Below are positions 39,780-63,271 of a stretch of 64,000 bases of DNA, in pieces (the stretch's first letter is position 1; the number at the start of each line of letters is the position of its first letter). This stretch comes from a candidate division FCPU426 bacterium. Its GTDB lineage: Bacteria; Oederibacteriota; Muellerivitia; Muellerivitales; Muellerivitaceae. A program made the position numbers and the translations under genes. Location: assembly GCA_963771075.1 (NCBI GenBank), contig CAVYSE010000028.1, forward strand, positions 352,001-416,000, given 5' to 3'. The notes below the pieces were generated by a model that had not been told where the DNA came from, did not search any database, and was given only the letters and a program-made list of their open reading frames with translations.

Positions 39780-40920
39780 TTATAACCCCGCTGCGGCGTG
39801 GGGTAGGCGCCCGGGAGCGAAAGGCTCGAGCGATAAATCGGTTTTTTCGTTGTTAAGCGCCTGGGCCATCAAGCGGCCTGTCACAGCTGATTGTAATAGC
39901 CCATGGGTAAAGTGCCCTGTCGCCAACCAGGCCCCCTCCGTTCCCGGAAGCCGGCCAAGATAGGGCCAACCGTCCACCGAACCCGTCCTTAATCCCGACC
40001 AACAGCGTTCGATTTTTTCGGGCCCTAAGTGGGGGTAAAACCGTTGGGCCCCATTTTTTAATTTTTCCATCCCCTCGGGCGTATTGATTTTCTCAAATCC
40101 GGCTTCTTCCAATGTGCTTCCCAAAAATAGACGGCCATCCCGCCGGGGAACCATATAGACAAAGGCTTTCCCAATGCCGGTAAAAAGGATATGCCTTGCC
40201 TTTCCGGGTTCATCCTGGAATAAAACCGCTTGCCCCCGGATGGGTTGGGTCGGAGTGGAAAATCCAAGCCGCTCGCAAAGCGATGCCGTCCAGGGGCCCG
40301 CGGTCAGCACCACTTGATCGGCTTCCACATCTTCGCCGGGTTGTTCTTACCCCGACGACCTTTCTTCCATGGAGAATAAAATCCTCCACCGGTTCCTGAT
40401 CCCTCAAGATCGCACCGTTTTTTCCAAGAAAAGCCAGAAGCGCTTGGCCTAAACGGGGGGGCAAAATCTGGCTTGTTCCTTCCACGAAAAAAGCCGATTG
40501 TAAATCGCCCGAAAGACCCGGCTCCCGGCTCAATACCTCTCGGGGGGAAAGCCATTGGCCCTTTACGCCGAAGCCCTCCATCGCCTTTTCCATGAATCGG
40601 ATGGAAGCTTCTTCCTCGCCACCAAAAGCCAGGTCCAAACTGCCGGATCGTATAAATTCCGGGTCTATCCCTGTGTCCTTCCTTAATTTCTCGCACCAGC
40701 TTGGGAAAAGATCGAAGGAACTTTTGCAAAAGTGGAAAAAATCCGCGTCCACCCTGGAAGCGCTGCGCAGGTCCAGAAAACCCGCTCCTGCCCAGGAAGC
40801 CTCGCGGTAGAAATGGGACTTTTCCAGCAAGATCGGTTGAATTCCCAACTCCAACAAGCGATAGGCGATGGAAAGTCCGATTACCCCGCCCCCCACAATC
40901 ACGATCCTATTGGATATCAT
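39780..40920 (-). CDS. thiO: Glycine oxidase ThiO-like FAD oxidoreductase (frameshift near 40330)
   Basis: GGGVIGLSIA, EASWAGAG, PIRGQ, YMVPRRDG, WSGLR, ATGHFTHG. Confidence 0.8.
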
Positions 40921-42367: not shown

Positions 42368-43579
42368 TCAATTACTAAATTGGGCCTTGACCGCGAGGAT
42401 GCGCTCAATGTTGTTGTTGAAGGCCTGGAGGACATTGGGATCAAAATGACGCCCGGTTCCCTCCCGGATGATCCGCAGGGACTCCTCCAGGGAAAAAGCC
42501 GGTTTATAGCAGCGCTTGGTCGTAAGCGCGTCAAACACATCGGCCAGTGCCACGATCCGACCGTTCAAGGGGATCGCTTCCCCCTTCAAGCCACGGGGAT
42601 AACCGGACCCATCCCACTTCTCATGGTGGGTCATGGCGATTTCCTCCGAAACTTTCAACAATTCCGCCTTGGCGTTTTCCAAAATTTTTCCGCCGAAGAC
42701 CGTGTGGTTCTGCATCTCCTTGAATTCCGCCGGGGTCAATTTTCCAGGCTTCATGAGGATTGAATCAGGGACGCCTAATTTCCCGATGTCATGCATGGGG
42801 GAAGCATAACGGATGCTTTCCACTTCGTGGGCGGAAAGCCCCAAACCCTCGGCCAGGATCGCCGAATAGCGGCTCATCCGGTGGATATGTACCGCCGTGT
42901 CGTCATCCTTGTATTCCGCCGCCACGGACAGGCGGAAGATGGTATCCAGGTAGGCTTCCTTAAGTTCCTGGGTTAGCAAGGCGTTCTTGATGGCGATGGC
43001 GGCCTGGCTGGCCAGGGAAAGGACCAGGTTCTCAAAATGTTTCTCGAAGGGGACGATCTGCTTACCCTTGCGGGCGTTGATCAGCTGCAAAACACCCACC
43101 ACATTGCTGGAAGCGTCCTTCATCGGCACGATCAGCATGCTCTTTGTGCGGTAATTATTCTTCTCGTCGAAGGATCGGTTGAACCGGTATTCCTTGTTGG
43201 CCGGAATCTTATAGGCGTCCGTCAGGTTCAAAACTTTTGCGGTGACCCCGACATAACCCGCGAGAGAACTTTTGTCGAGGGACACATAAAAGCCGGTGAA
43301 GGTGGAGGGAACCACTTCCAGGGTTTTCTTTTGGGCCTTGGCTTCGGCTTTTTTGCGGGCTTCCAGCACATCGTTCTGGCTGACCGAAAAACGGAGCTGG
43401 TTCCCCTCCCGCACGTACAAACTTCCCGCCTCGGCATTGGTGAATTGTCGGCTCTCAGTGAGGATCAGCGTCAAGAGTTGATTAAGATCCTGCTCCCGGG
43501 AAAGAGCGATTCCTATACGGTTGAGGGACATCAATTGCTCGTGAAGACCGAGGACACTGACCTTGGATTTTGGGGACAT
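42368..43579 (-). CDS. GAF + HD-GYP c-di-GMP phosphodiesterase
   Basis: GAF (YRTKSMLIVPM, GVLQLIN); HDIGK, HHEKWDGSGYPRGLKG, ADVFDAL. Confidence 0.95.
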   Translation of the reverse strand: MSPKSKVSVLGLHEQLMSLNRIGIALSREQDLNQLLTLILTESRQFTNAEAGSLYVREGNQLRFSVSQNDVLEARKKAEAKAQKKTLEVVPSTFTGFYVSLDKSSLAGYVGVTAKVLNLTDAYKIPANKEYRFNRSFDEKNNYRTKSMLIVPMKDASSNVVGVLQLINARKGKQIVPFEKHFENLVLSLASQAAIAIKNALLTQELKEAYLDTIFRLSVAAEYKDDDTAVHIHRMSRYSAILAEGLGLSAHEVESIRYASPMHDIGKLGVPDSILMKPGKLTPAEFKEMQNHTVFGGKILENAKAELLKVSEEIAMTHHEKWDGSGYPRGLKGEAIPLNGRIVALADVFDALTTKRCYKPAFSLEESLRIIREGTGRHFDPNVLQAFNNNIERILAVKAQFSN

Positions 43580-43831: not shown

Positions 43832-43931
43832 TTCCCCCTTTGAAAAAGGGGGGAGAGGGGGGTATTAGCTGTTTCCGATGCAGTACGACAAGGCTAACTC
43901 CCCCTTGGTCCCCCTCTTTCAGAGGGGGGAA
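43832..43931. repeat. REP-like GC-rich inverted repeat pair
   Basis: tccccctttgaaaaaggggggagagggggg ... tcccccttggtccccctctttcagagggggga. Confidence 0.7.
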
Positions 43932-44043
43932 AAATCATGCAACCTAAAACCCGGAACGGACTTATGATCCGGTCTACTTAGGGGAACCGGCCCACCTGCC
44001 GGGAGCCCTCCAGACGAGCAGCGGGACTTGGTTGTGCCGGTTC

Positions 44044-44451
44044 CTAATGGGAACCGGCTGGAGGAATATCCACAAGCCTGTATCGGACGGTTTTTCCCGC
44101 CCCCAGCCGTTCAATCCGCCTTTGGCCCAACAGATGCGGGAGCAAATAGGGGTTAAAGAACTTTGGTTTTGTCGTCAACCGGTTCAGGTTATAGGTCAGG
44201 CTGCTACGGGCCATGCCCAGTTCTTGGGCCAGTTCGCCCGGGGTCACCTCCCCCCGTTTTTCGATGCAGGCGATAATCCTTTCCAAATCCCCTAGGCTAT
44301 CGTGGTGTTCTTTTCTTCCCTTTTTCCTGTTTTTGTAAGCCTCGGTCAGGGGGATAGGGGGGGATGGGGCCGATTGGGCCCGGGGTGATTCATTCTTCTC
44401 CAAACCAAAAATATTCCTCAGAAAACCCTTCATAGGCGATTGTTCAACCAT
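44044..44451 (-). CDS. Winged helix-turn-helix protein
   Basis: GGAGGT RBS; IIACIEKRGEVTPGELAQELGMARSSLTYNLNRL...IERLGAGKTVRYRL. Confidence 0.85.
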   Translation of the reverse strand: MVEQSPMKGFLRNIFGLEKNESPRAQSAPSPPIPLTEAYKNRKKGRKEHHDSLGDLERIIACIEKRGEVTPGELAQELGMARSSLTYNLNRLTTKPKFFNPYLLPHLLGQRRIERLGAGKTVRYRLVDIPPAGSH

Positions 44452-44502
44452 TGGATACCTCCCAAATTATTGGCTCAAAATCCTATTTTCCGCCAATTCT
44501 TC

Positions 44503-44803
44503 TTCGCAGTGGAAAAAATTGGCAGAAAGGACGGTAGGTCCGTTTTCCCAGTAAAATAAATTGGTAATTAGGCGTTATCCCGGTAAATTTAATTGGCAGG
44601 TAGGCCATTCCCGGTAAATAAAATTGGCAGAAAGGCGGTTTTTCAGTGGCAGGTACCGGTTACCCGAGAAATTAAATTGGCAGAAAGCGCAAAAAGTCCG
44701 GTCTCCCGTGTAATTAAATTGGGAAAAAGGCAGTCGGGGCTTGGTCTTTAGCAACAAAAATTGGCAGGAAGACAGTCCCTGGTTAAAAAAATTGGCAGGT
44801 TGC
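44503..44803. repeat. Helically phased iteron-like array, consensus about TCCCGGTAAAWWAAATTGGCAGRAAGG, 8 copies plus 1 partial
   Basis: AATTGG cores at 44517, 44559, 44591, 44622, (44644), 44675, 44717, 44759, 44790. Confidence 0.85.
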
Positions 44804-44809
44804 GGACAA

Positions 44810-47687
44810 TCAAAGGCGGGTTTTGCCAATCTCATAGACTTTCAAGACTTCATCCCCATAGTGGTTGATGACTTTATGGCGATCTTCCCGGTTTGCCATT
44901 TTCAGGTTGGGGGATATCAAAAGGCCGGCTTTCGGTCTTATAGAGCGCCGACCAGGCGGATTCATCAATTTCAGCCCGTAAGGCCCGCTTGAGCTTGTCA
45001 TAGGGTTCCTCGGCGCCGGTGAAGTAGGCGTGGCGCACGAAAAAGCTTTCGCCGTTGTAGTTGGTGTCGAGGAACCAGCAGGCGATATCGTCGGTCTTGT
45101 TGCTTCGCACGTCCCCGGTGGTGGGGTCATAAACGTCCACCCCCTTGATCTTGACCGTCAGCTTGCCGTCCTTGGTTTTCTTGATATCCACATCCGGTTC
45201 CCCGAAGACCATGAACAGGTTCCCGGAACCGGTTTTCTTGAGCAATTCGTCGCCCATGGCCAGGTCGGGGTTCATGCGGGCTAAGAGGATAGGCAGTTTC
45301 CCGAATTGTTTGGCCTCTTCCGCCACGGCGAAATCGTCGGCTTTTTGCTTGTCCGGTATGAATTCCTTCACCGTTTCCCCGGCATGGGCGTCATAGGCAA
45401 AACCCAACACCACCAAAAGGTCAAACCCCGCGCCTTTCATGGCCTCCTTGGCGGCTTCTTTGACTTGTTCTGGCCCCACGGTGCCATGTTCCGGCCCAAT
45501 GGAAACCGCCACCCGGCGGGTTCCACCTTTTTTATCAGTGTATTCGCCGATGGCGTGTATCCAAACACCCGCGAAGGGTTCTAACCGGTCAAACTTAATG
45601 CCTTCGTTTTTATGGGTGCTTTTAACCCCGGCTTTTCGGAGGTTATCGAGGATCGTGGTTTCGAACTGCCCCACCACCGCCTGTTTCTTGCCATCCACTT
45701 CAGAAACCGGCCTGGATTCGTCGGTGGATAACACCCGATGGGGTGAAAGGCTTTCTACCGTGAAGGGGCCGGTGACCCGAACCCGCTTGTTGTCTTCGTA
45801 AGGTTGGTCGTAGAGGTATTCGTAATCGCCGTGTTTGGAAATGGATTCGTCCATTTCCTTTTGCCGTTCCTGCCGCAAGGCCCACCATTCTTCCAACAGC
45901 TTTTTGGCCTTGTCGGACCAGTCTGATTCCGCTTCTCGTGGAACTTCCCATTCTTCCCACTTTTGCTTGAGGGCCTTATTCAAGGATTCCAAGACAGGTA
46001 CCAGCTTTTCCTTCCATTTGTTGTGAATTGTGTCGATCTCTTCGTTGTTGGCGATGGATTTGAGGGTGATGTGTGGCACGCGTTTATAGACGAACCCTTT
46101 TTTGATATCACTATCTGATTTTGGAAGGGGCATTGATGGTGTTTTGTTGGTAACTTCGGCTTCTTTCATTATTCCAGTGTCAGAATCAGTAAGTAAGTAG
46201 TAAGGAAACTTAGCGGCCATAAGTCGTGTGCGTGCTAAGGCTAATGCCACACGCGATGTATCTGTTGTTATCCATCGTCTTCCCCATTGTTCGGCCACAT
46301 AAGCAGTTGTCCCAGAACCGCACGTAGGATCAAACACAAGATCTCCTGGATCAGTCGCCATAAGAATACAAGTTTCAATAATTTTTGGGCTTGTTTGAAC
46401 TACATAAGTTTTTTCGTAGGAGATGGCAGTTGTTAACCAAAAATTCGTTAGTTTTTTATAAGGGAAATCAGCGAATTCCAAACGATAGCTTAAACTTTTC
46501 CCCTCTTCTTGAAGCCTATTTGCACATACCAAACGGTCTAATTTTTGTTTATCGACTATCCAAGCCCCTCTACTTGGTGGGTTGAATTTTTCATTCCTAA
46601 AAGAATATTGAAAGTCAGTTTGTTCACTATACGAAGGCGCTATTACCGAAAATAATCGGTAATACTTTGTTCCCTTCGAATGCAGCTTATTTTTAAAATC
46701 CGAAGGGTCAATTTTCTCCCATTCTTCATTTGGGTATAAAGCGTATGGACCATGAGAACTAATTTGCGAAACATCGTTCTCTTCAAATAATTGTTTATAC
46801 TTAAGCATCTGTTTGTTCTTTGCATAAAACAATATATGGTCATGCATTGTTTCTAAGTATTTAGCGCCGAGTGGTAATGTCTTTTTCCTGAAAATTATAT
46901 TTGCAATAAAATTTTCGCTTCCAAAAACCTCATCAAGTAAATTACAAACCAAGTGGTTATTTTCAGAGTTAATCTGGACAAAAATACTGCCTGATTCGGT
47001 TAATAAATCTCGGCTCTCTATAAATCGATCTCTTAAGTAGCTCAAATATGAATGAATCCCTTTTTCCCAAGTATCCCGGAATGCTTTTATTTGTTCAGGT
47101 TGTCTGGTTGCATCCTCAGCACGATCCTTAAGATCATTTTTTCTTGTTGAAACCTGCCAATTCGAACCAAATTTAATACCATAGGGCGGATCCATGTAGA
47201 TCATTTGGACCTTGCCCTTGAGCCCTTCCTTCTCCGCCAACGAATTCATCACGAGTAACGAATCACCCAAGATCATCCGGTTCGCCCATTTCACGTCATG
47301 CTGGTAGAAATCGATCATTTCCTCGAACTTGATGCCGTTGAAATCTCCGAAAAGGTCGGCTTGGGATTCGGGCGCGTCCTTCTTTGCCTGCTTGCGGATA
47401 TCCTCGATGATGTAACGGGGGTGGATTTTTTCCTGGATATAAACGGGAACGGCCGGAACCTTGAGCGGTTCCCTGTCCTGCTCGTCCTTTCCCTTCCAAA
47501 CCAATTGCGGGTCCAGCGACGGGTCGCGGGCGTAAAGCAGGCCGGGGTATTCGATCGTTTTGGGCTTGTTCTCGTCCGCCTTGACGAAATCCCGCAGTTC
47601 CTCGGTGGGTATGTTCGCCCGCCGGTCCTTGTGCTTCAGGTTCTCGACTGGGATTTTGTTCTTTCCACTGCCCTTTTTAGGCGGCAT
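44810..47687 (-). CDS. Type III-like adenine DNA methyltransferase (Mod); C-terminus frameshifted near 44880
   Basis: NRMILGDSL, DPPY, FDPTCGSGTT; conserved-looking tail KVINHYGDEVLKVY lies in the adjacent frame ending at 44810. Confidence 0.93.
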
Positions 47688-47734: not shown

Positions 47735-48565
47735 TTATCTCTGTTTCAGCTTCTTCAAGCCTTTTTTAGGCGGTAAAAAATTCTCGCCTGTCACCACCTT
47801 TCGCCCTGTTTTGTTCTCCAACTCGAGCCGCGCCTTACGGGCGATGCCGCCTCCTTTTTGCCCTGCCTCTTTGTTCGGCTCCAGCCCCACGGCGCCTTCG
47901 GTTTCCGCGATCTGCCGGGTTGAAAGCTCGGCGAGGGCCGTGAAGATCAATTCCGCCTCGCTCATGTGGTCGCGGAGATTCTGGGTCTTGAGGCCTTTTA
48001 TTTGCTTGTGGTCTTTTACCGAGACATCCGCCCATTCCCGGTGGATGAGATCGGTCAAAAGGGCATATTCTTCATCGCCCTTGATCTCGTGATTTTTCCA
48101 GTAGTCCGTCAGTTTGTTTCGGGTTTCCTGGCCCATCATCCTCTGTTGGACCCATTTCTCGCTGCGGCCCTGCCGCAACCAATACTCCCGGGCACGGTCC
48201 AACGAAAGAGCGGGGTCTGCCATATCTTTCAGGCGTTCGTGGCCCACCTTAGCCAGCCACTGCTTGAGGGGCTCAACCTTGGGGGAAGGGATTGACTGCA
48301 CGAGTCGCAAGATCTGTTCCGTATCCGCCATATCCGTTAACCGATTCTTGCCATCCGCAGCGGTCATTTTCAACCTGTGACAATTTGTCACGGTTTGATT
48401 ACCTTCTTTTCTAAGCCTTTCCTTGAGCTTTCGCCAATAAGCGCCGGGATCGACACTTTCAGTCAATGCGGAGACTATATCCACAATAACGAAAAACCAT
48501 TTTTGGTTTTTCTCATCCCAAATACGCCGGACCTTTTTATCTTCAAATAAGACCATATTACCCAT
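47735..48565 (-). CDS. BRO-N domain (antirepressor-like) protein
   Basis: KVRRIWD...WFFVIVDIV, YWRKLKERL, LKMTAADGK, QSIPSPK.EP.KQWLA, NLRDHMS. Confidence 0.9.
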   Translation of the reverse strand: MGNMVLFEDKKVRRIWDEKNQKWFFVIVDIVSALTESVDPGAYWRKLKERLRKEGNQTVTNCHRLKMTAADGKNRLTDMADTEQILRLVQSIPSPKVEPLKQWLAKVGHERLKDMADPALSLDRAREYWLRQGRSEKWVQQRMMGQETRNKLTDYWKNHEIKGDEEYALLTDLIHREWADVSVKDHKQIKGLKTQNLRDHMSEAELIFTALAELSTRQIAETEGAVGLEPNKEAGQKGGGIARKARLELENKTGRKVVTGENFLPPKKGLKKLKQR

Positions 48566-52555: not shown

Positions 52556-52822
52556 TGCCTGTCCTTTTCCAAACTTTGCGGCCTATTCTATCCGGAAACC
52601 AAGGCCTCTTCCCATCGGCGGCCCGTAAAAGATCGTCGGTTAATGCGGTTTTAAATGGCCTTATCCAATGAAACCCACCCTAAAAATGGAAGCGCGTAAA
52701 TTTTGTATAATTGAGTATACAAAAATCACTTATCAAAAAAGGCCTATTTTATTGGATAAAACAAGGGAATGGCTTTTGAGCTGGTAAACAGATGGAGACT
52801 GCGCCTTTATCGACCAATCGCA

Positions 52823-52985
52823 TCACCACTTCACCGGGCATTTCATGATTTCACCTGATTGCTTGTGCTTGAAAAGGACATGCCCTTTTTCCCGGCCGAA
52901 TTTCCAGAGGTCGTGGGTGAGCTTCACATCCTGCCGGCAATAGTCGATCACCTGGTCGAACTTCCCCTCCCGCCACCACTTCACC
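52823..52985 (-). pseudogene. Diverged duplicate of the 3' end of the helicase-exonuclease gene
   Basis: 163-nt direct repeat of 56934-57096 (about 13 mismatches); encodes VKWWREGKFDQVIDYCRQDVKLTHDLWKFGREKGHVLFKHKQSGEIMKCPVKW*. Confidence 0.93.
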
Positions 52986-56930: not shown

Positions 56931-59900
56931 TTATCCCCACTTCACAGGGCATTTCACGATTTCACCCGATTGCTTGTGCTTGAAAAGGACATGGCCGTTT
57001 TCCCTTCCGAATTTCCAGAGGTCGTGGGTGAGTTTTACGTCCTGGCGGCAATAGTCGATCACTTGGTCGAACTTCCCCTCCCGCCACCACTTCACCGCCA
57101 AGAGGCCGTCCGCGCTTTTTTCCGCCCCTCCCAGAGTATGCTCCGCCAGGTGGGCCAGGGAAAGACGGTGGTTCAGCGTTTTTTGCAGGTCCGCCATTAA
57201 ATCCAGCGAGGGGAGGCTCTGAAGGTTGAAGGATGCGTAACCCTGAAGCACCCCGTAGTCGAACCGAAGCGTGTTGAAACCAATCACTAAACTGGCGGCT
57301 TTAAGGTGCCGCAATAAATCTTGCACCGTGCTCTCCACGTAGGTGAAATATTTATCCAGCTGGATGTCATAAACCACCGCGCAGGAAAGTTTCATGCCCG
57401 GCAGGTTGCCCCACCCCCCCTGAATTTCCCCCGCCAAGTATTGGGTTTCGATGTCGAATACAACCGTGCCCGTCTTTTCCGGCGGATTTTCTTTGTACGT
57501 TCCGGGTTGGGGGCCCTGGGAAGGCGAGAGGGGGTTCGCGATGGGAGCTTTTTTCACGAACAGGTTTTCCGTTTTCGGAAACAGATCCGGGCTTGGTCCG
57601 GGGGCAGGCGACTGGGTTCGAGCCTTATAGTCTTCCCGCCCGAGAATAAAACCCAGGATACGAAGGGCTCCTTCCTTATCCAGCGGATGGTTCCCGCTCC
57701 CGCACTTGGGGGATTGCACGCAGGAGGGACAGCCCTCCTCACATCCGCAATCCCGGATCATCTCAAAGGTGGTCGAGAGCAGTTCTTCCATTGTCCCGTA
57801 GGCCTTTTGTGTCAACCCGACCCCGCCGGGATAACCATCGTAAATGAAGATGACCGGCTGAGGCACTTGTGGATGGGCCGGGGTGGAGATTCCTCCCAGG
57901 TCCCATCGGTCGCAAACCACATGCAGGGGCATCATGGCGATGGTTCCGTGTTCGGCGGCGTGGAGCCCGCCCATGAAATGGATCTTCCGGTCCGTGACCT
58001 GTCGTTGAAGAGTCTCGGGAAGCGCCATCCAAAGGGCTTTCGTCTCAAAGGTTTGCGTGGGAAGAGTGAGGGGATAGGTGGAAACCAGGCCCTGGTCCAG
58101 GAGGCGATGAACCTCATAATTGATGAACCGCTGGGTGATCTTGACCCGGCCGAAGCGAATGGAACATTGGGATTTGGCCGGGCCCAGGTGTCTTCGGTTT
58201 TCCTCCTGCAGGATCTCCGTTTCCTCCTCATAATTGACCTGGGTGTAATAATCCACAGGCTCATCCAGGACCAGTATCTTGCGCTGTTCCCATTGCAGGT
58301 CCTTGACCACGTATTGGATGCCCTGGTGCAAATACACCGCGCCCGGGTGGCAGTCCCGAAAAGCGCGCGAGCCATCGATGGTTCCGATCACTTCCCCCGT
58401 GTCCTGCCGGATGATGGAATAACCCTCCCCCATTTCCCGAATACTGACCGAACGCTGGGGATTTTTATCCGTTACCAGGAATTTATCCCCGGCCGCGGTC
58501 TCCAGCACCAAACCTTCTTGGACCATGGGTTTTAACCATTGGCCCAAAGCCGGGCCGTAGATAGGCCCGTCCCCCTCCAAGGTAATGGGGATCTCGGATG
58601 ACGCGCAACGCAGGTGGTTTTTCGCGATAACTTCATTTTCAAAACCCACCATCAGGGACTCGGGCCTCATAGAAAAAAACCGCGAAGGGTGCTTCATCCA
58701 ATATTGGTCCATGGCGTCCGCCATCCCGACGAGAAAGACCGCCGAAGGAGCCTGCCCCCGGCCAACCCGGCCCGAACGCTGCCATGTGGAGATCATGGTT
58801 CCGGGATAACCCACCAGGACGCAGGCGTCGAGACCGCCCACGTCGATGCCCACCTCCAAAGCGGAGGTGGAGATGACCGCGCTCAATTCATCCTTAAAAA
58901 GCAGGGATTCGATCTCCCGCCTTTCCTCCGGCAAATATCCCGCCCGGTAACTTCGAATCCGGGAGGCCCATTCCGGCCTCGACTGGTGGACCCACAGGCT
59001 GATGAGTTCGGTGATCTTTCGCGCCTTTGTAAAAACGATGGTTTTAAGGCCCTGGTCCAGGCACTCGATGAGAAGTGTCACCGCCGCGGTGTAAGGCGAT
59101 CCCGACTCGGGGTTCCACAGGACAAAAGTTTTTTTATTTTGGGGCGCCCCAGATTCGGAAATAATCTCAAAATCCTGGCCGGTCAACCCCTTGAGGAATT
59201 CCTCCGGGTTTCCCAGCGTAGCCGAACATGTCACAAAGTGGGGATCGGTGCCATAATGGCGACAGACCCGCCTTAATCGGCGAACAACATGCGCGACATG
59301 GGCGCCAAAGATTCCCCGGTAACTGTGGGCCTCATCGATCACCACGATTTTCAAGTTCTTGAAAAATTCGGCCCATCCGTCGTGAAACGCCAAGATGCCC
59401 AAGTGGAGCATATCCGGATTGGAAAGCAATATATTCGGCGGGTTCTTTCTAATTTTGGCTCGAACCCCGGATGGGGTATCCCCGTCGTAGATCTCGGCGC
59501 TGAATTCCGGTAACCCGTTCGTTTTAAATCGGCCTTTCCATTCCTGGAGGTTTTTAAGCTGATCCTGCGCCAAGGCTTTCACGGGATAAAGGTAAAGGGC
59601 CCGGTATTTGGGGCTTTCCAAAATTCCATTAAATACTGGCAGGTTGAAACACATGGTTTTACCCGAGGCGGTGGGGGTGGTCACAGCCGTGTGTTTCCCC
59701 GCGAGGATGGCGTCCAAGGCTTGCGCTTGATGGGTCCATGGGGCCTCAAACCCCGAATTTTTAAGGACCCCCATCAAAGAATCGGAAAGCCCCTTGGGCC
59801 ACGCCGAATACCGGGCTTGGGTTGCCTGAATGACCTCTACATGCTTGATATTGTCTTTTAAGTCTTCCCGTGATTGGAGATGGGATAAAACCCTGGAGAA

Positions 59901-59936
59901 TGGGGAATTAATATTTTTAGCCTCAATGAATCCCAT
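56931..59936 (-). CDS. DUF1998 DEAH helicase (MrfA/SftH/Hrq1-like) fused to a C-terminal RNase H-like/DnaQ exonuclease
   Basis: TPTASGKT, DEAH, SAT, QRSGRVGR, CGCEEGCPSC; then FDIETQ, GFNTLRFD, YCRQDV. Confidence 0.93.
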   Translation of the reverse strand: MGFIEAKNINSPFSRVLSHLQSREDLKDNIKHVEVIQATQARYSAWPKGLSDSLMGVLKNSGFEAPWTHQAQALDAILAGKHTAVTTPTASGKTMCFNLPVFNGILESPKYRALYLYPVKALAQDQLKNLQEWKGRFKTNGLPEFSAEIYDGDTPSGVRAKIRKNPPNILLSNPDMLHLGILAFHDGWAEFFKNLKIVVIDEAHSYRGIFGAHVAHVVRRLRRVCRHYGTDPHFVTCSATLGNPEEFLKGLTGQDFEIISESGAPQNKKTFVLWNPESGSPYTAAVTLLIECLDQGLKTIVFTKARKITELISLWVHQSRPEWASRIRSYRAGYLPEERREIESLLFKDELSAVISTSALEVGIDVGGLDACVLVGYPGTMISTWQRSGRVGRGQAPSAVFLVGMADAMDQYWMKHPSRFFSMRPESLMVGFENEVIAKNHLRCASSEIPITLEGDGPIYGPALGQWLKPMVQEGLVLETAAGDKFLVTDKNPQRSVSIREMGEGYSIIRQDTGEVIGTIDGSRAFRDCHPGAVYLHQGIQYVVKDLQWEQRKILVLDEPVDYYTQVNYEEETEILQEENRRHLGPAKSQCSIRFGRVKITQRFINYEVHRLLDQGLVSTYPLTLPTQTFETKALWMALPETLQRQVTDRKIHFMGGLHAAEHGTIAMMPLHVVCDRWDLGGISTPAHPQVPQPVIFIYDGYPGGVGLTQKAYGTMEELLSTTFEMIRDCGCEEGCPSCVQSPKCGSGNHPLDKEGALRILGFILGREDYKARTQSPAPGPSPDLFPKTENLFVKKAPIANPLSPSQGPQPGTYKENPPEKTGTVVFDIETQYLAGEIQGGWGNLPGMKLSCAVVYDIQLDKYFTYVESTVQDLLRHLKAASLVIGFNTLRFDYGVLQGYASFNLQSLPSLDLMADLQKTLNHRLSLAHLAEHTLGGAEKSADGLLAVKWWREGKFDQVIDYCRQDVKLTHDLWKFGRENGHVLFKHKQSGEIVKCPVKWG

Positions 59937-61885: not shown

Positions 61886-63271
61886 TTAGTTGGAGTAAAA
61901 ACCGTCGGTGAGTTGTTTTTTCAAGCTGTTGATTTCGGCCAACAATGCGATATCGGAAACGAGCAAGTCCTCGATTTTCTCATAAGCGTGAATAATGGTC
62001 GTGTGGTCCTTACCTCCAAAAGCGGCGCCGATCTCACTCAGGGAATGAGGTGTTAATTCACGGGAAAGAAACATGGCGATTTGCCTTGGGAAGGCGATCT
62101 GTTTCGTCCTTTTTCTGGATTTCATGTCCGAAAACCGACAATTGTACCTGTCCGCGACCACCCTTTGAATATCTTCCACCGAAACCCTTTTATCCTCGTT
62201 GGGAAAGGTATCTTTTAGAATTTCCTTGGCCAAGTCTAGGGAGACCTCCTGGCGGGTGAGGGACGAAAAAGCGATGACCCGGAGCATGACGCCCTCTAAT
62301 TCCCTAATGTTGGCTTTCGCGTGATTCGCGATGAAGGCCGTCACGTCATTGGGGACGAGGATTCCCTCATGCTCGGCTTTTTTCCTTAAAATGGCGATTC
62401 GGGTTTCCAAATCGGGCTCTTGAATATCGGTGATCAGCCCCATTTCGAACCGGTTTTTGAGTCTTTCCTCGAGCTTGATTTCTTTGGGATGGCTGTCCGA
62501 AGTCGCAACGATTTGTTTTTGGGCCTCATAGAGGACATTGAACGTGTGAAAGAATTCTTCCTGCGTGCTTTCCTTACCTTCCAAGAATTGAATATCGTCT
62601 ATCAATAGAACATCAACGGTTCGGTACTTATTCCTGAAATCTTGGGTGCGCCCGGATTGAATGGATTGGATCATGTCATTCATGAATTTTTCGCTGGATA
62701 AATAAAGAACCCGGGAAGCCGGATTCTGGATTCTTACGAAGTTTCCGATCGCCTGCAAAAGATGAGTTTTTCCTAAACCAACTCCCCCGTAGATAAACAA
62801 GGGGTTGTAGGAACGGGCAGGGGATTCCGCTACTGCTAGGCAGGCCGCATGGGAAAAACGGTTGCTGTTGCCGACAACGAAACTTTCAAAATTGAATTTT
62901 GAATTCAGGATAAATTCAGTATCGGTTGAATTTCCGTGATTTAGGGGATTTATTCTGGATTTTTCCGCAATTTCAATGGATAAAGAGGGCTTAGCAGTTA
63001 AAGGAGCTGTTTCGGGATTGAGAATTGCATTTTCGATTTCAAATTGAATTTCCAATTGTTCAGGATGGAGGGCATTCAAGGCCTTTTGGATTTGGGGTTG
63101 GTAATGGTCCCTGATCCAATCCCGGAAAAACTCATTGGGAACCTGGACATGTAGAGTTTTTTCGCGTACCGAGGCTTTGGTAACCTTAAACCATGTTTCA
63201 AAACTTTGTTGGTTTAGGTCTTTTTTTAGGTTTTCAAGGCAACGATCCCAAAGATCGGCAGTAACACTCAT
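61886..63271 (-). CDS. dnaA: Chromosomal replication initiator DnaA
   Basis: FETWF, YNPLFIYGGVGLGKTHL, DVLLIDDIQFL, QEEFFHTFN, RQIAM, GGKDHTTI. Confidence 0.99.
   Translation of the reverse strand: MSVTADLWDRCLENLKKDLNQQSFETWFKVTKASVREKTLHVQVPNEFFRDWIRDHYQPQIQKALNALHPEQLEIQFEIENAILNPETAPLTAKPSLSIEIAEKSRINPLNHGNSTDTEFILNSKFNFESFVVGNSNRFSHAACLAVAESPARSYNPLFIYGGVGLGKTHLLQAIGNFVRIQNPASRVLYLSSEKFMNDMIQSIQSGRTQDFRNKYRTVDVLLIDDIQFLEGKESTQEEFFHTFNVLYEAQKQIVATSDSHPKEIKLEERLKNRFEMGLITDIQEPDLETRIAILRKKAEHEGILVPNDVTAFIANHAKANIRELEGVMLRVIAFSSLTRQEVSLDLAKEILKDTFPNEDKRVSVEDIQRVVADRYNCRFSDMKSRKRTKQIAFPRQIAMFLSRELTPHSLSEIGAAFGGKDHTTIIHAYEKIEDLLVSDIALLAEINSLKKQLTDGFYSN

Follow-up and report, generated by a model that had tools for sequence, protein, structure and literature searches.

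Several DNA-binding proteins offer the closest comparisons for the module described here. In Bacillus subtilis, Noc combines an N-terminal amphipathic helix, a variable spacer and sequence-specific binding to palindromes (NBS), and its helices, weak on their own, take effect only through clustering on DNA (PMC4331003). Noc belongs to the ParB family and starts its spreading at about 70 dispersed sites. A winged helix-turn-helix (wHTH) domain coupled to a MinD-like helix is found in RocS and RicO and is predicted for pSK1 Par (PMC11500499, 10.64898/2026.03.06.710092). In these small proteins and in RacA, tethering has been proposed or shown; they have a MerR-type wHTH and a coiled coil, RocS and Par have DUF536, and the ricS sites are non-palindromic and dispersed. 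In the R388 StbA-stbS system, a single helix-turn-helix (HTH) protein occupies phased direct repeats upstream of its own gene (stbDR, repeats of 9 bp with an 11-bp period, carried by a conjugative plasmid) and is repressor and positioning factor at once (10.1101/2022.04.29.490116). Here we describe a module from a candidate division FCPU426 bacterium. It lies in a stretch of 64,000 nucleotides, called the window (assembly GCA_963771075.1, contig CAVYSE010000028.1, positions 352,001 to 416,000; positions below count from its first letter), and consists of a gene for a 135-residue winged-helix protein and, directly upstream, an array of phased repeats at 44452-44810. The module resembles Noc, RocS, RicO, Par and StbA in outline, with no ParB or coiled-coil domain. 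Our preferred reading, held with modest confidence, is that it is a cis-acting, likely autorepressing DNA-to-membrane tether, in which wHTH proteins would sit on phased half-sites and their predicted terminal helices on the inner membrane.

The initial annotation of the window reported eight AATTGG cores, at 44517, 44559, 44591, 44622, 44675, 44717, 44759 and 44790, with spacings of 42, 32, 31, 53, 42, 42 and 31 in phase with helical turns of 10.5 bp; the positions and spacings are exact, and the phase was confirmed. First-order Markov simulations of the region, 20,000 in all, gave a mean of 0.38 cores and a maximum of 6. Each window half-site consists of CTGCCAATT plus an A/T tract, and the full units match a 27-nt consensus at 19 to 27 positions. 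The mean cosine at 10.5 bp was 0.975, with 10.5 also the best period in a scan from 5 to 25 bp, and the phasing was significant against jitter of +/-10 bp (p = 5e-5; p = 3.6e-4 once the repeated spacings were collapsed to four values). The phasing of A-tracts proposed at the same time is weak (R = 0.36 over 22 tracts). A partial copy claimed at 44644 does have a core-like hexamer and little else of the unit (Table 1). Inverted cores were said to flank the array and are indeed present; the one at 44486-44498 proved to be the second arm of a full palindrome, which has N20 where the family norm is N21 and an inner core symmetric at just 3 of 10 pairs, and the one at 44821-44830 falls within the 3' coding end of the mod gene once two single-letter gaps are allowed.

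The array, or parts of it, was reproduced without letter changes in contigs of four public metagenome runs (soil, bog or unspecified), and an assembly artefact was rejected on this ground. One such contig spans 44039-45200 whole and may be the source of the window, and one shows a 3-nt gap at 44497. No RNA dataset was among the public runs listed as carrying the array. It had been considered that the repeats might encode a repeat protein; 2 to 7 stops interrupt each of the six frames across 44452-44810 and the array has no indels in run X1, so the array is not such a gene. At the palindromic sites described below, the sense strand has no excess of G.T over A.C (10 versus 16), which argues that the palindromes are not RNA stems, and Rfam gave no match over the array; a structured RNA was rejected on both counts.

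The product of the wHTH gene is arranged as an N-terminal amphipathic helix, a proline-rich linker, a basic AYxNRKKGRK arm and a wHTH with a 15-residue insert before the wing. This insert, first noticed as an extra segment between the recognition helix and the wing, is real in the window protein and is missing from many homologues. The predicted structure is a single winged helix plus an inserted short helix, with a Pro-rich linker and a longest helix of 14 residues. On the question of a MerR-type wHTH, its top 50 structural matches were ScpB, Z-alpha, IclR, ArsR, MarR and ROK types, tied at Z of 7.2-8.8, and a family outside these 50 may match as well. The Z-alpha match (Z 8.7, root-mean-square deviation 1.8 over 61 residues, 16% identity) was tied with unrelated wHTHs, and a PDB sequence search gave Z-alpha at E 0.2. 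Membership of MarR, ArsR, IclR or Csa3 was not indicated, the generic HTH_24 alone being above its cut-off and NCBIfam matches falling far below theirs. PADLOC matched at most 7 of 49 family members and not the window protein, for which no ParB match was obtained either (15 Pfam families at E<=1), and the ESM Atlas returned generic HTH clusters only (best 0.91). A homodimer prediction score of 0.01 counts neither way.

The gene, called an orphan in the initial annotation, has three paralogues elsewhere in the same genome (G000; genomes, loci and contigs of the comparison are numbered G, L and C), making four copies. In a profile search, copies turned up in 11 of the 30 further genomes of this family (12 at a looser cut-off) and in 8 metagenome loci; 18 of the 31 family genomes show none. 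No copy was found in 68 other genomes of the phylum, and no protein match in 72,556 plasmids, 50,697 phages, viral contigs or the named-genome scans. The wHTH gene thus recurs at scattered spots in one uncultured bacterial family. The profile also gave 62 representatives at 50% identity, the last few of which are unrelated HTH proteins; before the counts given here, duplicates (L066, L049 and L052), one non-family site at L063 and five distant proteins and fragments were left out. One distant relative (L113:942-1827, G002:C10) has a hydrophobic, probably multi-pass N-terminal region, a Pro-rich linker, a C-terminal wHTH and no CCAAT sites. Other distant relatives have a membrane helix after the wHTH or a hydrophobic region before it.

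Cognate sites lie upstream of the wHTH gene at 23 of 25 distinct loci. This bears out the earlier proposal of an undescribed wHTH-plus-array module, for which the upstream regions of homologues had been suggested as a check. At 21 loci there are one to four sites of the form X-CCAAT-N21-ATTGG-X' (N19-20 in a short subgroup), and two further loci, G014 and G018, have direct arrays of half-sites. Phased half-sites occur at three loci, the window, G018 and G014, and the window units correspond to the left two thirds of the 45-bp family palindrome. G018 carries a sister protein at the same chromosomal spot, with array spacings of 42, 42, 32, 158, 32, 42, 42 and 32 (mean cosine 0.978), and the direct array of G014 has a best period of 10.65. 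Full palindromes are phased as well: 19 distances between successive sites (62-336 bp) peak at 10.5 bp (mean cosine 0.656, p = 5e-5, 5-25 bp scan), one of them, 289 bp, being out of phase. In three loci another gene or an insertion sequence separates the sites from the wHTH gene.

Full sites are few per genome and mostly beside a wHTH gene, with 0-6 pattern matches per genome in 31 genomes. A search for other copies of the unit, also suggested earlier, located half-site clusters in G000 only at the four wHTH genes and at three small orphan spots. Pairs of sites with no wHTH gene behind them were seen at L053:15415-15790, L056:8297 and L090:3620-3790, and one orphan pair repeats, over 361 bp and at 90% identity, the array that precedes the C24 paralogue. 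None of 35 viral pattern matches has a wHTH nearby, and their cores are asymmetric. Scans of named genomes gave four matches, two of them sites already collected and two with no wHTH nearby.

The arm bases that precede CCAAT covary with helix 3 of the adjacent protein. TG is found with [AS]R-S[ST]L-T, TT with -A, GT with PK-STL-I/V and GG with PK-STL-K, and the dominant arm class agrees with the recognition helix at every one of 23 loci. When the code residues were masked, the tree required four coupled changes, and a single origin of TG and of TT was each rejected (p-AU 0.008). A truncated copy in G008, similar to the GT-class protein of L060, is accompanied by a GT site. Major-groove binding of the wHTH protein to its own array is likely, the main evidence being this covariation over four events.

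A terminal anchor was predicted by calculation in 36 of 49 proteins, at the N-terminus in 27, at the C-terminus in 7, at both in 1 and as a transmembrane segment in 1; the same test was passed by 11% of shuffles and 30% of long open reading frame (ORF) termini. The window helix resembles the MinD targeting sequence printed in 10.64898/2026.10.05.756812 and PMC5471200. Because the feature is kept while shifting between termini, the terminal helix is most simply a membrane anchor. The long palindrome of the family, the predicted anchor and the residue-to-base covariation were all missed in the initial annotation.

In the tether that we propose, wHTH copies would bind the phased half-sites on one face of the DNA, the phasing would place all helices on the same side, and the aligned proteins would use their terminal amphipathic helices to keep the DNA at the inner membrane. 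Helix 3 would read the two bases next to CCAAT (Thr86 with TG in the window), and the basic arm and wing may take the A/T tract. The Pro-rich linker would make inverted arms three turns apart equivalent to direct repeats 3-5 turns apart. Single helices are presumably weak, so that 4-10 phased sites would supply avidity, as shown for Noc (PMC4331003). The protein likely also represses its own gene, because the last site ends 18-41 nt ahead of the start codon at most loci. The module would act in cis, and the tether might serve the positioning, expression or persistence of cassettes.

Compared with Noc, a terminal amphipathic helix is likewise present by calculation, whereas the window protein is a stand-alone wHTH with 1-10 sites beside its own gene, the ParB N-terminal (cytidine triphosphatase) domain is absent from its model, dozens of dispersed chromosomal sites were not found in the genome scans above, and clustering would come from the phasing of the sites. 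The present family differs from RocS, RicO, RacA and pSK1 Par in that its linker is Pro-rich, its anchor can be at either end, a genome can hold several paralogues and the phased array is local; neither a central coiled coil nor, in the Pfam scan, DUF536 was found in the window protein. In contrast to stbDR, the repeats here are separated by 3-5 or more turns, go back to 45-bp palindromes and lie on the chromosome.

Several observations weigh against the tether. Thirteen of the 49 proteins fail the anchor test, several narrowly, and about eight have no candidate helix. Taken alone, the window helix reaches p = 0.03 against shuffles and a predicted local distance difference test score (pLDDT) of about 49, and the predicted model has no coiled coil, which RocS needs for membrane association (PMC11500499 / 10.64898/2026.03.06.710092). 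No sites are found upstream at L067 and L072, another specificity class is represented by one of the four sites of L054 and by a remnant on contig C22, and TA variant arms occur beside TG. Kin are not independent, so the code rests on four events. No sigma-70-like promoter was found within the array, and the model leaves unexplained the 21-bp cores, symmetric yet all different, that are described below.

Much of the same evidence could be accommodated by repression or a roadblock only, with phased operators (looping or a cooperative strip) controlling the wHTH gene and the genes that follow, and the helix parking free protein at the membrane or mediating a protein contact. The adjacency of the last site to the ribosome-binding site, the proteins with no anchor and the position of the module between cas6/DUF1016 and cas1 or cas4-cas1 at L046, L054, L057 and L060 would fit such a role, and StbA represses through phased direct repeats (10.1101/2022.04.29.490116). 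It would not account for an anchor that is retained despite shifts between termini and changes of type, the downstream genes are unrelated between loci, and 8-10 sites over 300-700 bp are in our judgement beyond the needs of repression. Regulation with no DNA tether is a credible alternative, if a rather improbable one.

The window locus is a hotspot between an MrfA-like helicase gene, behind dnaA-dnaN, and a GAF/HD gene, and dnaA ends at 61886, 17 kb from the array. A wHTH locus follows the MrfA-like gene behind dnaA-dnaN in five cases (window, G018, G008 C30, G011 and L048), and the modules of G018, G008 and L048 are of different classes. An origin anchor of the RicO or RacA kind would explain this placement; it is hardly credible, given that the spot is empty in G002, G003 and G014, that more than half of the family genomes counted above have no copy and that the sites are not spread around the origin. 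The spot holds other genes in G044, and DnaA-box matches within the window do not exceed chance. With the spot empty in three genomes and most copies located elsewhere, the link to oriC drawn in the initial annotation is not supported as a necessary one. Elsewhere the gene occurs within cas operons, in front of cas1 or cas4 (4 loci), in clusters of toxin-antitoxin genes or behind housekeeping genes. At L054:7914-10895, L057:1474-6754, L060:7306-10763 and L046, a DUF1016 gene, a site array and the wHTH gene lie between cas6 and cas1 (or cas4-cas1), and these CRISPR-locus modules differ in specificity class.

Duplicated gene ends flank cassettes, and the module therefore travels with accessory and defence cassettes at chromosomal hotspots. 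Diverged 3'-end copies of the upstream gene border defence or toxin-antitoxin cassettes in the window (mrfA-like, 52821-52984), at L063:10425-10535 and at L070:7586-7686, and the wHTH gene is itself among those whose 3'-end copies flank cassettes. The 161 neighbouring ORFs scanned at E<=1e-8 came mostly from a set of 199, from which wHTH genes, L066 (a duplicate) and a number of short ORFs were excluded. No neighbour gene is common to all loci, and there was no Rep, nucleoside triphosphatase (NTPase) partner (ParM, ParA, TubZ) or integrase among these ORFs, window positions 1-36000 being outside the scan. No relaxase was found near the wHTH loci, and no integrase either, a recombinase unlinked to the loci not having been searched for. 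Most loci have no restriction-modification (RM) system, and a link to RM genes is not supported. TTGGCAG, put forward as the target of Mod, was rejected: it occurs 481 times against 492 expected, and the same arms are present at loci with no RM genes. Three public runs show one extra letter each at 44875 and 44886, so the frame break of mod is probably an assembly error, and the true C-terminus of the protein would be within the ORF ending at 44810. A glycine-oxidase-like gene (identified by eye) is apparently split in two ORFs at 39780-40920, possibly by an assembly indel. Downstream of the wHTH gene, a GGGG/CCCC hairpin repeat at 43833-43932 also occurs in G014, G018 and many public-run contigs; Rfam gave only sub-threshold microRNA matches for the hairpin at 43833-43929.

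The 21-bp cores of the full sites are symmetric at 132 of 160 pairs, as against 60+/-6 when shuffled, yet their sequence varies from site to site. Symmetry was 4.12 per site and 2.55 across the sites of one locus, and a rough count over 26 related pairs gave 16 compensated double changes where about 3.4 were expected. The window cores have decayed to 2-5 symmetric pairs out of 10 with the phase retained, which argues that phase and arms, not hairpins, matter there. Integron attC sites and REP/REPIN elements have the same plan of conserved outer boxes around a variable self-complementary core, with accessory cassettes adjacent. By analogy, the palindromes could be handles for recombination or integration that are defined by structure (hairpin or cruciform), the wHTH being an accessory and the window array a decayed stack. 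The symmetric, variable and compensated cores are what such handles would show; folding energies of full sites are -17 to -22 kcal/mol (3 of 3 from other loci), modules start right after stop codons, gene 3' ends are duplicated around cassettes (window mrfA, L063 and L070) and one hotspot is occupied by different classes. A hairpin cannot normally form the pair flanking a single central base, and this pair is complementary in 21 of 32 sites. Phasing at 10.5 bp is moreover a property of the duplex, and the three direct arrays have lost the hairpin (window unit z -0.46) and kept the phase. Unlike attC and REP/REPIN, the sites have no linked integrase or RAYT, their symmetry is near-perfect, odd-centred and phased, and their arms covary with an adjacent DNA-binding protein. 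No recombinase was among the 161 neighbours and no Y1 transposase was flanked by repeats, the single Y1 match being at L072, a locus devoid of sites. Inverted repeats can be perfected by template switching with no function involved (PMC5941160), and this process would not obviously set helical phase. On balance, we regard recombination handles as unlikely.

Odd palindromes of a second class, which have AATAAGGG at their flanks, lie interspersed among the wHTH sites at six loci, in phase with them, and this class also forms phased arrays of its own. At L078:3660-4160 (G000:C22:24176-24648), nine near-perfect 10-1-10 palindromes with eight different cores are spaced 42, 63, 63, 52, 63, 64, 52 and 73 bp; this array includes one TT-class wHTH arm, and no TT-class protein was found in G000. 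Seven palindromes at L063 are spaced 53, 63, 73, 52, 64 and 32. In ParB-like genes, a variable odd palindrome together with AATAAGGG directly follows the HTH, in frame, with a core that differs per paralogue, and some products of these genes have hydrophobic C-terminal segments. Odd palindromes were also seen inside the Bro-N gene of the window (7-1-7, at 48377-48391) and in the DUF1016 genes of L054, L057, L058 and L060 (8-10 of 10 pairs, with an AGACA-N-TGTCT-like centre). A third class, AAAGTCTATT-N-AATAGACTTT, lies at G000:C12:14359-14628, spaced 33, 42 and 111 bp. As a genome-wide control, palindromes with a centre of one base were phased at 10.5 bp (n = 35, p = 1.5e-4) and those with centres of 2-5 bases were not; palindromes with no central base gave p = 8e-4, but with a best period of 15.3.

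By genome, the wHTH and ParB-like families occur together in 10 cases, wHTH only in 3, ParB only in 2 and neither in 16, counts for which the cut-off was chosen after the list was seen and among which kin are not independent. This co-occurrence would suit a one-protein partition system like pSK1 Par or StbA that either remained on the chromosome from an excisable element or serves one, with the array as centromere. So would the combination of wHTH, upstream repeats and predicted membrane helix, which matches the outline given for Par (PMC11500499), and a patchy presence with several specificity classes, which resembles incompatibility groups. Such a system is very unlikely here, in view of the absence of matches in plasmids, phages and viral contigs, the lack of Rep, relaxase or integrase near the loci and the missing coiled coil. 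The iteron or parC identity considered initially is not supported, as no Rep was seen in the neighbour scan and no plasmid matched, and no co-encoded NTPase was found there as in parC/ParR, type Ib or type III partition.

A wider and quite tentative reading, which we think improbable, is that accessory and defence DNA is laid on the membrane as a lattice by phased 21-bp odd-centred palindromes, each of different sequence. Two unrelated membrane-anchored families would serve it, the wHTH on CCAAT arms and transmembrane ParB-like proteins on the AATAAGGG class. The cores would be constrained in symmetry and not in sequence, and the palindromes within ParB-like, DUF1016 and Bro-N genes would mark cargo. 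If true, this would amount to a novel system for chromosome-membrane addressing or for the handling of cassettes.

Table 1. Coordinates of the features of the module and its surroundings (window positions unless a locus is named).
Feature	Position	Strand	Remarks
GAF/HD gene	42368..43579	-	conserved downstream border of hotspot
Winged-helix gene, 135 residues	44044..44451	-	HTH_24 26.5 bits, cut-off 21.9
Predicted amphipathic membrane-targeting helix	44401..44433	-	prediction; codons 7-17, like the MinD membrane-targeting sequence, moment 0.66
Ribosome-binding site GGAGG	44458..44462	-	sequence
Full palindromic site (CTG)CCAAT-N20-ATTGG(CGG)	44486..44529	none	only one in window; N20 also in run X1
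Half-site unit, core 44559	44546..44572	-	22/27
Half-site unit, core 44591	44578..44604	-	25/27
Half-site unit, core 44622	44609..44635	-	27/27
Decayed partial unit, core-like CAGTGG at 44644	44631..44657	-	12/27, weak
Half-site unit, core 44675	44662..44688	-	23/27
Half-site unit, core 44717	44704..44730	-	22/27
Half-site unit, core 44759	44746..44772	-	19/27
Half-site unit, core 44790	44777..44803	-	21/27
Type III-like mod gene	44810..47687	-	3' frame break probably assembly error
Lone inverted arm in last codons of mod	44821..44830	+	array remnant or chance
Copy of 3' end of MrfA-like helicase gene (56931-59936)	52821..52984	-	~80% identical; mark of cassette accretion
ParB-like genes with in-frame palindrome	L079:2953-6324, L081:2747-4525, L082:2839-4446; G000 C3, C11, C13, C23		

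Literature searches gave no description of the wHTH family or of phased variable palindromes, most subscription journals and supplements being outside their coverage. The family offers a small, testable set of predicted DNA-membrane tethers, whose natural residue-to-base code has four classes. If confirmed, its members would be usable as orthogonal tethers or repressors and would provide a compact, sequence-tunable DNA tether. The comparison also exposes a pattern that is unexplained, that of nearly perfect 21-bp palindromes, all different, which are phased at 10.5 bp over hundreds of bases.

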